Positions 2,195-62,507 of a stretch of DNA of 64,000 bases are shown in pieces (the stretch's first letter is position 1; every line of letters starts with the position of its first letter). Source of the stretch: an uncultured delta proteobacterium (GTDB lineage: Bacteria > Desulfobacterota > Binatia > Binatales > Binataceae). The notes under the pieces are model-generated. The model ran no database searches and was not told where the DNA came from. It saw only the letters and a list, made by a program, of their open reading frames with translations. The position numbers and the translations under genes were made by a program. Location of the stretch: contig CAVQEQ010000004.1 of NCBI GenBank assembly GCA_963711565.1, forward strand, positions 704,001-768,000, written 5' to 3'.

Positions 2195-2941
2195 CTAGCT
2201 CTGCGTTGCCTTTCCCTGCAGTTGCAGGATGCGATTTGGAATTTTCTGCGACCAGTAGTCCATCGCGTTCTGCGCGTCGCCCCATTGGAATGAAGCTGCG
2301 CTCTTGATACCCATGCCACCGGCGCGCTGATCGACTGCTTCGGCTAGCAGTTGGCCAGTGACGGAGTCAGTCAGCTTCATTTCGGCTTCGGCCGATCCTA
2401 CAAACGCGTAGCTGTCAGTCGCCATCGACTGAGCAAGGTTGAGCACGCGGGCTTGCGGAACAATTACCGAGATAGTGCGCAGGCCAGGAACCGCAGTCGT
2501 CGCGTCCATCAGCGCCACCCGCAAGGTCATCACGCCGGGACCCGGCTGATCGACAAGGGTGAAGCTCTTGGACAGGTTGGTCTGGAGTTGGTTGTAGAAG
2601 TATTCGGTCAGCGTAGCCTGGTCTGCTGCCGATACTTTCGAATCGGCGGCGGCCCAGAACTCAACCGGCATCAGCTGTATCTTGGTATAGCTGCTCCATT
2701 GAGCGTTTGGATTAATCCACGCTAGCGCGGCGCCACCCTCCGGGCCGGGCGCCAACCTCGACGCATCAGGACCGAGAAATCCCGTGACTGCACTGGGCAG
2801 CGGTCCCCCCGATTCCACTGCTTGTGCAGCCGCCGGCGCGCTCGCAACCGTCGTCGAGCATCCCGAGGTGAACAGCGCTGCAGCCAAACCTGCCGCGGCG
2901 AGGCCGGTTACCATCTTCTGTGCCAAATTTTTGGTGATCAT
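2195..2941 (-). CDS. DUF3313-family lipoprotein
   Basis: Lipobox-like FTSGC; GFLG...LAWINP...YTKIQL...EMKLTDSVTGQLLAEAVDQRAG pattern. Confidence 0.75.
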   Translation of the reverse strand: MITKNLAQKMVTGLAAAGLAAALFTSGCSTTVASAPAAAQAVESGGPLPSAVTGFLGPDASRLAPGPEGGAALAWINPNAQWSSYTKIQLMPVEFWAAADSKVSAADQATLTEYFYNQLQTNLSKSFTLVDQPGPGVMTLRVALMDATTAVPGLRTISVIVPQARVLNLAQSMATDSYAFVGSAEAEMKLTDSVTGQLLAEAVDQRAGGMGIKSAASFQWGDAQNAMDYWSQKIPNRILQLQGKATQS

Positions 2942-55894: not shown

Positions 55895-56263
55895 ATGGCT
55901 GCGCAAGCAAAAATTCTGATCGTTGATGACGAGCGCGATCTCGTCGACGCGTACGTGCGGCTGCTCGAGCGCGCGGGCCATCGATGTCTCGCAGCATTCG
56001 ACGCAAACGAGGCGATCCAGCTAATCGACGCCGAGTCGCCTGACGTGGTGATTACTGACCTGAGCCTGCCCGACACCAGCGGCATCGAGATCATCCGTCA
56101 CGTGCGCGCGAAGTCGGCGTCCACGCCGATAATCGTGATGTCGGGCCACAACACGCCCGAACTAAACAACGCGGCGCACGCCGCCGGCGCGAACATCTCG
56201 CTCCTGAAGCCGGTCTCGATCGCCGAGTTGCAGCGGGTGATTGTCGAAGCGCTGGCGCGCTGA
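55895..56263 (+). CDS. Single-domain response regulator
   Basis: ILIVDDE, ITDLSLP, MSG, LLKP. Confidence 0.92.
   Translation: MAAQAKILIVDDERDLVDAYVRLLERAGHRCLAAFDANEAIQLIDAESPDVVITDLSLPDTSGIEIIRHVRAKSASTPIIVMSGHNTPELNNAAHAAGANISLLKPVSIAELQRVIVEALAR
56196..56222 (+). repeat. 27-bp direct repeat, copy 1 (att-like core inside the regulator gene)
   Basis: TCTCGCTCCTGAAGCCGGTCTCGATCG is identical at 56997-57023. Confidence 0.9.
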
Positions 56264-56413
56264 ATCGAGCCTGTCGCTGCACCATCTGCTCATCGATAAA
56301 ATCGGAAGCTGATCCTCCGCCTAGTCGCCAAGCCTAAGCTCTTGTGCGCGAAAGCCGTCCAGACCGGAGAAGCAGGTACGGTTTCACGGACGGCCACACA
56401 TCTTCGGAACGCC

Positions 56414-56471
56414 TTGATTGAGTTGCATAGAAATAATATATTAGATATATCCAAGGAGCTAATGGATATAT
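56414..56471 (+). promoter_or_regulatory. sigma70 promoter and inverted repeat over the RBS
   Basis: TTGATT (56414-19)-17 bp-TATATT (56437-42); ATATATCC (56445-52) and GGATATAT (56464-71) flank AAGGAG. Confidence 0.6.
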
Positions 56472-56949
56472 GGGATTTCAAATAGAAATCGACTTTGAAG
56501 TGAATCAGAGAATTTGGGCAGAAAGAAGGTCCGAGGAGGAGTCTGATAACGATGTAATCAGAAGGCTGTTGCGAATGTCGCCTAAAAATGGCGGCCGATC
56601 GCAGAAAGCGAGTGAATTCAGTTCCGAGAAAGGTGCTTGGGTATGGAAGGGAGTGACACTTCCTGCTCATACGCAACTGCGCATGGACTACCTAAGCCAG
56701 CGCTATCAAGGTGAGGTACGTGGAGATGGGAAATGGTGGATCAATGAGAGATTCTTCAGGACGCCCTCCGAAGCAGCAAAGAGCTTGGCGCGTACTCGCG
56801 AAGGGAAGGAACCAAGCCTTGATGGTTGGAAGTATTGGTACGTAAAGCGGCCATCAGACCGAGATTGGATTCTGGTGGATGAGTTCAGAAAAGGTCTCGG
56901 CAATGGCCGCCCACACAAGAAGCCATCTATGGAGGATCGGAGTATTTGA
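56470..56949 (+). CDS. Hypothetical protein, probable RAMA/DUF4357-like DNA-reading domain
   Basis: IEIDFEV...SDNDVIRRLL N-terminus; GVTLP..T.LR..Y...G...F.TPS.AA....SLDGW.YW C-terminus; visibly AT-richer than flanks. Confidence 0.6.
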   Translation: MGFQIEIDFEVNQRIWAERRSEEESDNDVIRRLLRMSPKNGGRSQKASEFSSEKGAWVWKGVTLPAHTQLRMDYLSQRYQGEVRGDGKWWINERFFRTPSEAAKSLARTREGKEPSLDGWKYWYVKRPSDRDWILVDEFRKGLGNGRPHKKPSMEDRSI

Positions 56950-56976
56950 TCGCTCAACAGAAACGTAGGTATCCCA

Positions 56977-57064
56977 GGGCGCGGGCGGCGCTGACCTCTC
57001 GCTCCTGAAGCCGGTCTCGATCGTCGCGCTGCAACGCGTAATCATCGAAGCCCTCGCACGCTGA
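56977..57064 (+). pseudogene. Displaced duplicate of the response regulator 3' end
   Basis: Encodes AGGADLSLLKPVSIVALQRVIIEALAR* versus AAGANISLLKPVSIAELQRVIVEALAR*. Confidence 0.85.
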
Positions 57065-57124
57065 ATTGCTGCGGCGCGGGCGGCAGTTTGCTCGGCGACA
57101 ATCGGAAGCTCATCGTTCAATTTC

Positions 57125-57688
57125 ATGGCACCGGGCGACCAAACTACCCGAGTTTTTCGCAATGTTACGATCGAGGGCAGGATCTACGACCTGTCGCACC
57201 TCGACCAGTTCACGTTCGAGTTCGTGGTGCCCGAAAAGGACGGAAGACCACGGCAAGCATATGGAATTGACGTCCTGTTCAGCTGGCACTGTTTTACCCG
57301 CGGAATAGCAGAAGGCGAACACCTCCCGGAGGCCTTGGCTTACAGTCGTGGCCGCGAGACTCGCCTGTTCGACGAGCGTCGCTATCGTTTCTCACGGCAA
57401 CTGCCGAGCATTATTAGAGGCATTGGCACGCGAAAATGCTTCCACTCCGGCAAAGGCAATTTCTTCACGGTCGAGCTTACAGACGAGGAAGGAAGCCGAA
57501 TCGACTATACTATCTTCTTCAAAGTTTCACGGACCGCAAAGCGAGGTGCGCTAACTCTCCGCGTAGAGAGTGCCTATGCCCGAGACAACAGAGTGCCGCT
57601 TGGGCGCTCGCGGCCGCCGCGGCCCATTCGCTTTTCGGTCATTGCGTACAACACCGCAACAGGTAAGCCAATCAAGGAGCCGAAATGA
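57125..57688 (+). CDS. Hypothetical protein, candidate RNase toxin or RNA-binding protein
   Basis: 187 aa ORF with YDLSHL, FSWHCFTR, RLFDERRY..S..LP, GNFFTVE, VESAY; no domain recognised with certainty. Confidence 0.75.
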   Translation: MAPGDQTTRVFRNVTIEGRIYDLSHLDQFTFEFVVPEKDGRPRQAYGIDVLFSWHCFTRGIAEGEHLPEALAYSRGRETRLFDERRYRFSRQLPSIIRGIGTRKCFHSGKGNFFTVELTDEEGSRIDYTIFFKVSRTAKRGALTLRVESAYARDNRVPLGRSRPPRPIRFSVIAYNTATGKPIKEPK

Positions 57689-57714
57689 AAAAGGCCCTTC
57701 GTAGAAGGACCTTT
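57688..57714 (-). terminator. Intrinsic terminator of the putative ncRNA
   Basis: Minus strand GGUCCUUC-UAC-GAAGGGCC-UUUUU; the C/A mismatch on plus (57695/57709) is a G-U pair on minus. Confidence 0.7.
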
Positions 57715-57813
57715 CTCTGAATTCCGCTGGGAACCTCTTGGCTATCACCACACTTGGGTGGAGACCGGAATACCGGCGGGCGAGCGCTTGCACCCAGCTT
57801 AGGCGCTCTTGAT
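57688..57813 (-). ncRNA. Putative ~125-nt structured ncRNA convergent with 57125-57688
   Basis: Bounded by a minus-strand sigma70 promoter and intrinsic terminator; several hairpins and a possible pseudoknot; no credible ORF. Confidence 0.6.
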
Positions 57814-57818
57814 CAGGG

Positions 57819-57847
57819 AATATAACAAATGCGCCTGTTTCAAACAA
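57819..57847 (-). promoter_or_regulatory. sigma70 promoter with extended -10
   Basis: TTGTTT (57847-42)-17 bp-TATATT (57824-19) preceded by TGn. Confidence 0.65.
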
Positions 57848-57859
57848 ACCCAAGTTGAG

Positions 57860-58984
57860 TTACAGCGTGCGTTTGAAGGAGACGCTGGCGAGGATCAGCA
57901 TCAGCAACATGAAGATCAGCAGGAATGCTATGTCGCCGCTTACGGCGGTGAAGTCGGCGCCTTTGAAGAGGATCTGTTTGATTGCGCTTACTGAGTGAGT
58001 TTCGGGATTGAAGCGGGCGAAAGTTCGCAGCCACGGCGGGAAGCTTTCGACCGGATAGATCGCGCCGCTCGGGAAGAACAGGATCACGTTCAGAAATCCC
58101 GAGAACGTTCCCACCAGGCGCGGATGGCCCGCGCGGCCGAGCATCGAGAACGTCATCGCGAGCAGGCCGGTCGCGCTGATGATGATTATCCCGATCAGCA
58201 TCAACAGCGCCGTCGGGCCGCCGAGGATTCGCCCGCGCGTGATCATCAGTCCCAGGAACAAGACCAGGATGCCGCCGATGCTGGTCACCGTCACGCCGCT
58301 GGCCAGGATGCCGCCGGCGATGTCCCAGCGCGAAAGCGGAGTCACCAGGTAGCATTCGGTGACGCCCATGAATTTATCCATCACCCAGTTGAACACGCCG
58401 GACATCAGCGAGCCCATGAAGATCGCCATCACGATGACGCCGGGGATAAGCGAGCGATCGTAGTCAACGTACGGGAACAGCCAACTCGGGCGCAGTGAGA
58501 TCTCGTTGAGCTTGGGCTCGCGCGCGGTCACGAAGGTGACTCTCACGGTTGCGGCGGCCGAGTCGAGCACGCTTTCAAGGGTTTCCGAACTGACGCTGTC
58601 GACGTTGTCGGTGAACAATCCGATCTGCGCGATGCGGCCCTCGGCAACGTCGTGGCTGAAGTCGGGCGGGATGACGACGACGCCCTTGTAGAGCCCGTCG
58701 CGGACTTCGTCAACTGCGTTGCCCGGGTCGCTCTCGAAGGTGAGGTCGACGGTCTTCGGTCCCGCCTGCAACGCGAGCAACTGTTCGACGATGCGGCGCG
58801 CATAGAGTCCGTGATCCTGCGAGACGACGACGACGGGCAGGTGCTTGAGCTGGCCCTGGAACGAGTTGCCGATGATCACAAGATAAACGATCGGCATCAG
58901 GATGACGGAGATGAGCGTGATGGGATTGCGCGTCAGCTTCTTCAAGTCGCGGCGCATGATGGCGAGGAATTTGAGCCCGAACAT
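57860..58984 (-). CDS. ABC-2 type permease
   Basis: Multi-TM; G..E..LVTP.SR; FPSGAIYPVESFP.WL. Confidence 0.92.
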   Translation of the reverse strand: MFGLKFLAIMRRDLKKLTRNPITLISVILMPIVYLVIIGNSFQGQLKHLPVVVVSQDHGLYARRIVEQLLALQAGPKTVDLTFESDPGNAVDEVRDGLYKGVVVIPPDFSHDVAEGRIAQIGLFTDNVDSVSSETLESVLDSAAATVRVTFVTAREPKLNEISLRPSWLFPYVDYDRSLIPGVIVMAIFMGSLMSGVFNWVMDKFMGVTECYLVTPLSRWDIAGGILASGVTVTSIGGILVLFLGLMITRGRILGGPTALLMLIGIIIISATGLLAMTFSMLGRAGHPRLVGTFSGFLNVILFFPSGAIYPVESFPPWLRTFARFNPETHSVSAIKQILFKGADFTAVSGDIAFLLIFMLLMLILASVSFKRTL

Positions 58985-61975: not shown

Positions 61976-62296
61976 ATGTCCGACTATGCTGCCAAAGTTG
62001 CAACCCTTAAGTCTGAGCGGGCAAAGCTTGCTCAACGGCAATCGGAGCTCGCCGCCCAGCGCCGTGAGGAAATCGGCCGACTCGCCGAGAGACTCGGCAC
62101 ACTCGAAATCGATGACGACGTGCTTGCCGGCATGTTCCTCGAATTGAAATCCGCAAAGGAGGGAGATGGCTCGCGTCTCAAGCAATTGCGAGACGTGGGC
62201 TGCCGGTTTCGTTCTCCCAAGCCTGAGCGCGCTAAGCGACACCCCGCGGATGCTGCGGCGCACGCGAACGGCACTGATTCGAATCGAAGCGTGTAG
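61976..62296 (+). CDS. traC: TraC-like conjugal transfer accessory protein
   Basis: GAGGAGG RBS; coiled coil, EEIGRLA...G.LEIDD..L.G.F; position before traD and traG. Confidence 0.55.
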   Translation: MSDYAAKVATLKSERAKLAQRQSELAAQRREEIGRLAERLGTLEIDDDVLAGMFLELKSAKEGDGSRLKQLRDVGCRFRSPKPERAKRHPADAAAHANGTDSNRSV

Positions 62297-62303
62297 GGCA
62301 CGT

Positions 62304-62507
62304 ATGAGTCACGAAGAACGCAAACTCGAGACGCGACGAAAGATTGCGATGGGAGGCCTCGTCATCAAAGCGGGGCTCGACCACGAGGAACCTGCAGTGC
62401 TGCTCGGCATGCTCATGTCGGCGGCCCGCGTCCTGTCGAGCGCTAACGCGGATGAGCACCGCAAGCGATGGCGAGAGCACGGTGACTCGGCCTTCAAAAG
62501 AGTGTGA
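62304..62507 (+). CDS. traD: Conjugal transfer protein TraD (Ti-type)
   Basis: RKLETRRKIAMGGLVIKAGL..EEPAVLLGML...W...G..AF. Confidence 0.85.
   Translation: MSHEERKLETRRKIAMGGLVIKAGLDHEEPAVLLGMLMSAARVLSSANADEHRKRWREHGDSAFKRV

Follow-up and report, generated by a model that had tools for sequence, protein, structure and literature searches.

A YjaZ-family gene and a convergent SroH-like RNA form a mobile cassette and candidate toxin-antitoxin pair with a single-copy RNA predicted to be pseudoknotted

To our knowledge, RNA antitoxins that act on a protein are few, comprising the repeat RNAs of type III systems and AvcI. The defining features of type III systems include an antitoxin-terminator-toxin operon order (PMC5086642, in part). 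Like ToxIN, CptIN and TenpIN, the cassette described here combines a protein with a pseudoknotted ncRNA and is plasmid-borne, its pseudoknot being deduced from covariation. Their antitoxins are tandem repeats, whereas a single RNA unit is present here (no tandem array was found within 56900-58000), and their operon order is matched by the Vibrio relatives and not by the convergent locus in the window, i.e. the whole 64,000-nucleotide stretch analysed. The RNA of the YjaZ cassette usually has its own convergent promoter, and its pseudoknot spans two nested hairpins, whereas that of type III systems is a compact H-type. No Pfam or PDB sequence link was detected between the window protein and ToxN-type toxins, and no ToxN-type chain was among the matches listed for it by VIA; its core is predicted to be RelE-like, as are its best fold matches. 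A type III-like system had been proposed in a first-pass annotation made from the letters of the DNA. This interpretation agrees with the layout of the Vibrio relatives and disagrees with that of the window itself, which is convergent and repeat-free. The cassette likely works like a type III system, yet in the window it has neither the repeats nor the operon order of one.

AvcID likewise pairs an RNA antitoxin (AvcI) with a toxin unrelated to ToxN; unlike here, this toxin is a dCMP deaminase (PMC10511110, in part), and neither 'pseudoknot' nor 'repeat' was found as a term in that paper. The best structural neighbours of the protein core are type II toxins of the RelE/ParE superfamily (BrnT, RelE, YoeB, HigB). 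The antitoxins of that superfamily are proteins, whereas the YjaZ-family gene is not accompanied by a conserved protein partner in the plasmid loci, and the window protein is about twice the superfamily length, with added basic hairpins and a tail. A type I system with an antisense RNA was considered and rejected, given the terminator-only overlap, the lack of special pairing with the start region and the same-strand layout in Vibrio.

Table 1. Features of the cassette and its left border in the window.
Feature	Positions	Strand	Remarks
Repeat copy of response-regulator 3' end, likely left cassette border	56980..57066	+	82% over 87 nt to 56179-56265
YjaZ/HtrC-family gene, likely toxin	57125..57688	+	187 aa, basic, pI about 10
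Intrinsic terminator over the gene's stop codon, probably bidirectional	57686..57716	-	also in relatives
Predicted ncRNA of ~125 nt, SroH-like plan, likely antitoxin	57686..57812	-	5' end inferred from promoter
Purine-rich linker CCAAGAGG and pseudoknot 3' strand (57731-57726)	57726..57743	-	alignments, hand parsing
P2, CCGG 57776-73 / 57768-65; P3, CCAC 57761-58 / GUGG 57751-48	57748..57777	-	P3 loop CCAAG conserved
P1, GAGCGC 57808-03 / GCGCUC 57787-82, 15-nt loop	57782..57808	-	loop carries pseudoknot 5' strand (57798-57793)
Predicted RNA promoter, TTGTTT (57847-42), 17 nt, TG-n-TATATT (57827-19)	57817..57847	-	sequence

The open reading frame and all components of the minus-strand unit described in the first-pass annotation were recovered at the same positions (Table 1). 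On the minus strand, the loop sequence GCUGGG (57798-93) is complementary to CCCAGC (57731-26). Folding of the whole unit gave z=-2.38, with 5 of 200 shuffles equally good. The terminator favours the minus strand, as had been claimed (-20.3 kcal/mol vs -11.7 on the plus strand), and the overlap of RNA and mRNA is indeed confined to it, touching the stop codon only. The unit had also been described as free of open reading frames, which needs qualification: a 100-codon TTG-started frame (57551-57853, minus strand) crosses the RNA, and indels of 1-2 nt break this frame in relatives. The -35 element of the predicted promoter agrees at only 3 of 6 positions and the site is absent from the consensus-scan list. 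Sites of the form TTG..-16/18-..A...T (at least 8/12) were located 90-240 nt beyond the stop codon in 31 of 50 loci, mostly as TTGAC(A/T), a count made without background control. No Rfam family reached its gathering score in the window, and 57500-58000 gave chance-level matches only. In metatranscriptomes (small shares of three runs), a contig covered 57708-57892 at a depth of 2.5; it extends 45 nt beyond the promoter and is unstranded, and is thus uninformative on a separate transcript.

By sequence comparison, the 187-aa reading frame is a distant member of the YjaZ/HtrC family. It had been called an orphan, which is refuted by whole-length similarity to the NCBIfam model NF007263 (YjaZ; E=1.8e-12, with 47.6 bits and hence short of the equivalog cut-off of 324 bits), by a BLASTP match to E. 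coli YjaZ (28% identity over 172 aa, E=6e-19) and by PF27200, which is YjaZ in Atlas naming and is annotated (precomputed) on 97 of 97 homologues, one of them 98% identical. The protein matched 840 clusters (50% identity) at E<=0.001, its nearest named relatives being Candidatus Binataceae, and gave no significant match in Pfam, PADLOC, PHROGs and PDB sequence searches. H55, R80, R86, Y128 and S149-A150 were near-invariant in a 127-row alignment, with Y151 also listed as conserved. E. coli YjaZ departs from the family at the conserved residues H25, S90 and P94.

Confident AlphaFold models were used for structural comparison (pLDDT 87 and 94). When the core (residues 43-157) was submitted to VIA, BrnT was the best match (Z 5.8, rmsd 3.2, 74 of 77 residues aligned) and the top 12 rows were all RelE/ParE-superfamily toxins; these toxins also ranked first for the whole protein (Z 4.2). 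Since VIA Z values below 8 may reflect merely a common arrangement, the likeness to RelE and BrnT is treated as a lead. Foldseek searches of the PDB with both models (whole, core) returned no match at E<=0.001. A RelE/BrnT-like core formed by residues 43-157 is thus no more than suggested, and the BECR/RelE-like fold anticipated from the letters is hinted at by the VIA result for the core and left unsupported by Foldseek at this threshold. Taken together with the conserved His, Arg and Tyr residues, the weak fold match points to a possible nuclease activity.

A match to the covariance models R1 or R2 was found immediately 3' of the gene, in the opposite orientation, in 24 of 24 scorable metagenome loci, that is, those with a stop codon and enough DNA (of the 27 loci, 2 stop short of the stop codon and 1 has the terminator alone; 15 of the 24 belonged to the training set of R1 and a further 5 to that of R2, 20 in all). 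The held-out matches of R1 include the plasmid loci L036 (66 bits) and L035 (44 bits). The covarying structure whose presence downstream of homologues was to be checked was found in three alignments: A5 (17 rows), with 92.8% of cells paired and both partners substituted in 8 of 23 pairs; A7 (7 rows), with 94% and 16 of 29; and A12 (7 rows, SroH clade), with 97% and 5 of 19. In each set the number of doubly changed cells was equalled by 0 of 500 shuffles, and pairing dropped to 16-51% when the structures were slid as a control. P1 was paired in 98% of cells in A5 (double changes at 3 of 6 pairs) and in 95% in A7 (6 of 9), whereas the pseudoknot helix alone contributed 2, 2 and 1 doubly changed pairs in A5, A7 and A12. 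Pair counts are given per set only; MAFFT misplaces P1 in the mixed alignments A4, A9 and A11.

Among 33 hand-parsed RNAs, the pseudoknot core took many matched forms, including GCUGGG/CCCAGC, CGGAC/GUCCG, UGGAC/GUCCA, CAGGG/CCCUG, CCCGA/UCGGG, GGGCG/CGCCC and GUUGC/GCAAC. Tested singly against shuffles, the pairing reached P<=0.05 in 0 of the 33 loci. Collectively, cognate strands paired at -8.5 vs -7.5 kcal/mol for non-cognate strands (permutation P=0.0007), repeat tests yielding P=0.0003 and, after reduction to 24 de-duplicated rows, P=0.006; in this set P1 was placed by hand, the sequences are related, and the set omits L043, L049, L052 and metagenome loci that are near duplicates. An automatic anchor recovered at least 4 pseudoknot pairs in only 8 of the 33 loci, often choosing the wrong segment, and the output of an unguided search was noisy. 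The pseudoknot of the first-pass annotation is therefore backed by conservation and covariation and not by the window locus alone (P=0.085). On the evidence of covariation rather than of probing, the RNA keeps a predicted P1-P2-P3 fold that is closed by a loop-to-3' pseudoknot.

As they spread among genomes and plasmids, gene and RNA stay together. In 141 family genomes, 6 of 6 R1 matches were each convergent with, and abutted, one of the 6 close protein matches, with one R1 match per genome copy; no R1 match without the gene was found in these genomes, and 3 distant protein matches, including the paralogue L006 of the window's own genome, carried their own variant RNA as judged by eye. The earlier expectation that the protein is associated with a conserved structured RNA, present once and driven by its own promoter, was thus borne out by both the metagenome loci and the genome matches. 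This co-occurrence is in part physical linkage on one insertion. Within a sample of 301 genomes from the phylum, only the genome of the window contained the protein, and NF007263 failed to detect it there. Plasmid records matched the window protein in 282 cases and YjaZ in 577, of which 373 were from Klebsiella, and 5-kb ColE1-type plasmids were among the carriers. Of 24 plasmid loci, picked for spread and with the most distant ones parsed by eye, 20 had an RNA with such a plan in convergent orientation (4 clear R1/R2 matches, a weak match in L044, 4 SroH-clade matches and the rest by eye), 3 had an upstream RNA, and L049 was without clear assignment. In the three upstream cases (Vibrio L054, L040 and L059), an SroH-like RNA on the same strand is followed by a terminator, the RBS and the start codon; the SroH-clade model R3 detected L054 when held out (E=1.5e-15), and further Vibrio plasmids show the same layout. 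This same-strand upstream position indicates that the RNA tracks the protein and not a position. Frameshifted genes were found beside intact RNAs in L082 and L040 and in two more loci of raw metagenome contigs, where they may be errors; an intact gene clearly lacking the RNA was not seen among the loci examined. Viral contigs contained 3 loci, 2 of them partial weak matches, and phage records gave 1 weak match, so that the cassette appears to be mainly a plasmid and island element.

Both parts have counterparts in E. coli, yjaZ (htrC) and sroH, which had been missed in the first reading of the sequence. In strain K-12, sroH (b4691, RF00372) is encoded on the strand opposite to yjaZ (htrC, b3989) and ends 1 nt beyond the stop codon of that gene. 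SroH has the same plan as the window RNA, with P1, a loop-to-3' pseudoknot, two hairpins and a terminator, and differs in an additional hairpin within the P1 loop and another ahead of the terminator. The core of SroH, CAGA/UCUG, is replaced by CGGA/UCCG in Vibrio L059, a form that is also found in the window-like loci L035 and L036. None of the covariance models RF00372, R1, R2 and R3 crossed between window-type RNA and SroH in either direction; RF00372, in which the terminator is the sole structure shown, matches the E. coli, Serratia and Leclercia loci and misses the window RNA. Position, plan and protein homology, rather than model scores, suggest that the window RNA and SroH share descent. 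Among 5426 E. coli genomes, yjaZ was found in 3738, the sroH core in 3740 and a yjaZ-sroH junction covered to at least 80% in 3430, which marks a patchy islet; these figures are totals rather than a per-genome cross, and both genes sit on the one islet. Two sampled O157:H7 rows had a shortened yjaZ. According to the available portions of the respective sources, the function first assigned to yjaZ was retracted (PMC11551758), the function of SroH, which occurs in full-length and processed forms, is called unknown and its deletion mutant is viable and described only as envelope-stress sensitive (PMC5389530 citing Hobbs 2010), pairing of SroH with kbl was confirmed by EMSA (PMC6172242), the distribution of sroH is patchy (PMC3318445), and htrC is present on ColE1 amplicons (PMC5864857). 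No proposal of the yjaZ/sroH pair as a toxin-antitoxin system was found in the literature searched, which lay mostly outside subscription journals and excluded supplements.

The first-pass annotation had placed the cassette in an accessory hotspot typical of defence genes, and the surroundings agree with this. In 40 genus genomes, a response-regulator gene and an ABC permease gene adjoin, often 13-30 nt apart. Gene and RNA were present in 3 of the 40, always as a pair, and the match ended at the RNA 5' end. When 20 stretches were inspected (19 at the hotspot, mostly larger gaps; 16 proteins scanned), a PIN-domain toxin of the VapC kind was found in 6, with VapB confirmed in the one PIN stretch scanned for it, and the other cargo comprised a methyltransferase/Eco57I-like gene in 1, an AAA_15 ATPase in 1 and the YjaZ-RNA cassette in 2. 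Restriction genes are among the plasmid neighbours. A further gene (56470-56949, plus strand; GC 0.50) encodes a 159-aa protein whose N-terminus is SeqA/antitoxin-like and which also has a RAMA-like domain (E=8e-8, below cut-off); preceded by its own promoter-like site (56414-56442) and located between both copies of the regulator 3' end, it appears to be a second cassette stacked in the hotspot. A TetR-like gene is followed by two small genes (61976-62507, plus strand) that encode TraC-like and TraD domains and may mark the edge of a conjugative element.

The reading towards which we lean, if by a little, is that a RelE-fold toxin is paired with a single-copy pseudoknot RNA antitoxin that acts in trans, the toxin being released when RNA synthesis stops. 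Gene and RNA would then constitute a mobile two-part cassette that moves between genomes and plasmids. Its YjaZ-family protein, judging from the structural models, is likely a toxic ribonuclease or translation poison, and the separately transcribed single-copy RNA likely binds this protein and keeps it inactive. The RNA would target the protein in trans rather than the mRNA, as suggested by its varying position (mostly downstream and convergent, in Vibrio plasmids ahead of the gene in the same orientation) and by an mRNA overlap at the terminator only. By analogy with type III systems, a halt in RNA synthesis, when a plasmid is lost or a phage shuts down host transcription, would let the RNA decay first and free the toxin, and the freed toxin could cause plasmid addiction or abortive infection. 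In this scheme, the yjaZ-sroH pair of E. coli would count as a chromosomally encoded case. Several findings count against this reading, chief among them that the sroH deletion is reportedly viable, which loss of a strict antitoxin should preclude except where yjaZ is hardly expressed or is attenuated, its differences at H25, S90 and P94 being a possible cause; in addition, the protein has no PADLOC match, the VIA Z values lie under 8, Foldseek was blank at E<=0.001, no covariance model links the window RNA with SroH, and the pseudoknot is significant only collectively. We regard as evenly poised the wider proposition that YjaZ-SroH is a widespread, overlooked RNA-antitoxin family, in which a RelE-fold toxin and a single-copy pseudoknot RNA on either side of its gene stabilise hundreds of plasmids or abort phage infection, and which explains the orphan gene and sRNA of E. 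coli. If true, the pairing of a RelE-fold toxin and a pseudoknot antitoxin that lacks repeats would constitute a new family, carried on hundreds of plasmids, and the long-unexplained yjaZ and SroH of E. coli would gain a role, a question that is testable in K-12. The toxin reading aside, Rfam lacks both the conserved RNA fold and its association with the YjaZ family.

Four other explanations were weighed. The protein may be the non-toxic partner in a ribonucleoprotein, binding, maturing or stabilising an RNA that, free or in complex, regulates other targets, e.g. by base pairing with mRNAs. Such a role would suit the viable deletion with its stress phenotype, the processed forms of SroH (PMC5389530, in part) and the EMSA-confirmed pairing with kbl (PMC6172242, in part). 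It fits poorly with conserved features that are structural, the pseudoknot sequences being swapped without a fixed seed, and with the RelE-like fold and with carriers that are tiny plasmids and toxin-rich hotspots, and we consider it unlikely. The viable deletion would also be accounted for by a phage-triggered defence enzyme that is harmless alone and uses the RNA as a sensor, cofactor or activator, a role in keeping with the methyltransferase/Eco57I-like and AAA_15 ATPase cargo of the hotspot and the restriction genes near plasmid copies. The broken genes with intact RNAs and the lack of a clear intact gene without RNA are better explained by an inhibitor, and the Vibrio layout would give an excess of RNA over protein, like type III operons; a defence enzyme of this kind therefore seems improbable.

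Regulation solely in cis, by an antisense, a transcription-interference unit or a structured terminator region, would make sense of the convergent layout, the terminator common to both units in most loci and possible read-through from the upstream ABC operon. We give it very little credence: the two transcripts overlap at the terminator only, pairing of the RNA with the start region of the gene is unremarkable (equalled by 32 of 200 shuffles), RNAs flank the gene on either side in L046, and the flip to an upstream same-strand position in Vibrio makes an antisense or terminator role untenable. The RNA fold could instead serve mobility of the cassette, as a recombination end, ribozyme or guide, with the protein mobilising it. 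The sharp cassette borders, the match of relatives that ends at the RNA 5' end and the duplicated gene end flanking the insert all accord with this idea, which is nevertheless scarcely credible given that VIA listed no recombinase or transposase fold and Rfam gave no ribozyme match.

Variants of the cassette were also recorded. The window's own genome contains a distant second YjaZ-family paralogue (L006, G000:C4:1137519-1138250), whose convergent RNA has a near-consensus promoter, three internal hairpins and a GGGCG/CGCCC core, with close variants in L099 and L100. A Xanthomonas oryzae plasmid (L046) carries two different family RNAs, one upstream (2298-2389, plus strand) with its own terminator and the other convergent. 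The YjaZ-family gene of L035, L047, L042, L048, L052 and L083 lies directly 3' of an HTH gene, a VbhA-like antitoxin operon or a gene for an unknown protein, and an added protein regulator may exist in these lineages. In L010, L011 and L012, the RNA is extended by an additional hairpin that follows the promoter and precedes P1, much as SroH is by its 5' leader. The motif CCAAG occurs twice in the window RNA, in the P3 loop (57757-57753) and in the linker (57741-57737, both minus strand), and is kept in the near group; it does not occur on the sense strand of the reading frame and is a candidate recognition or cleavage motif.
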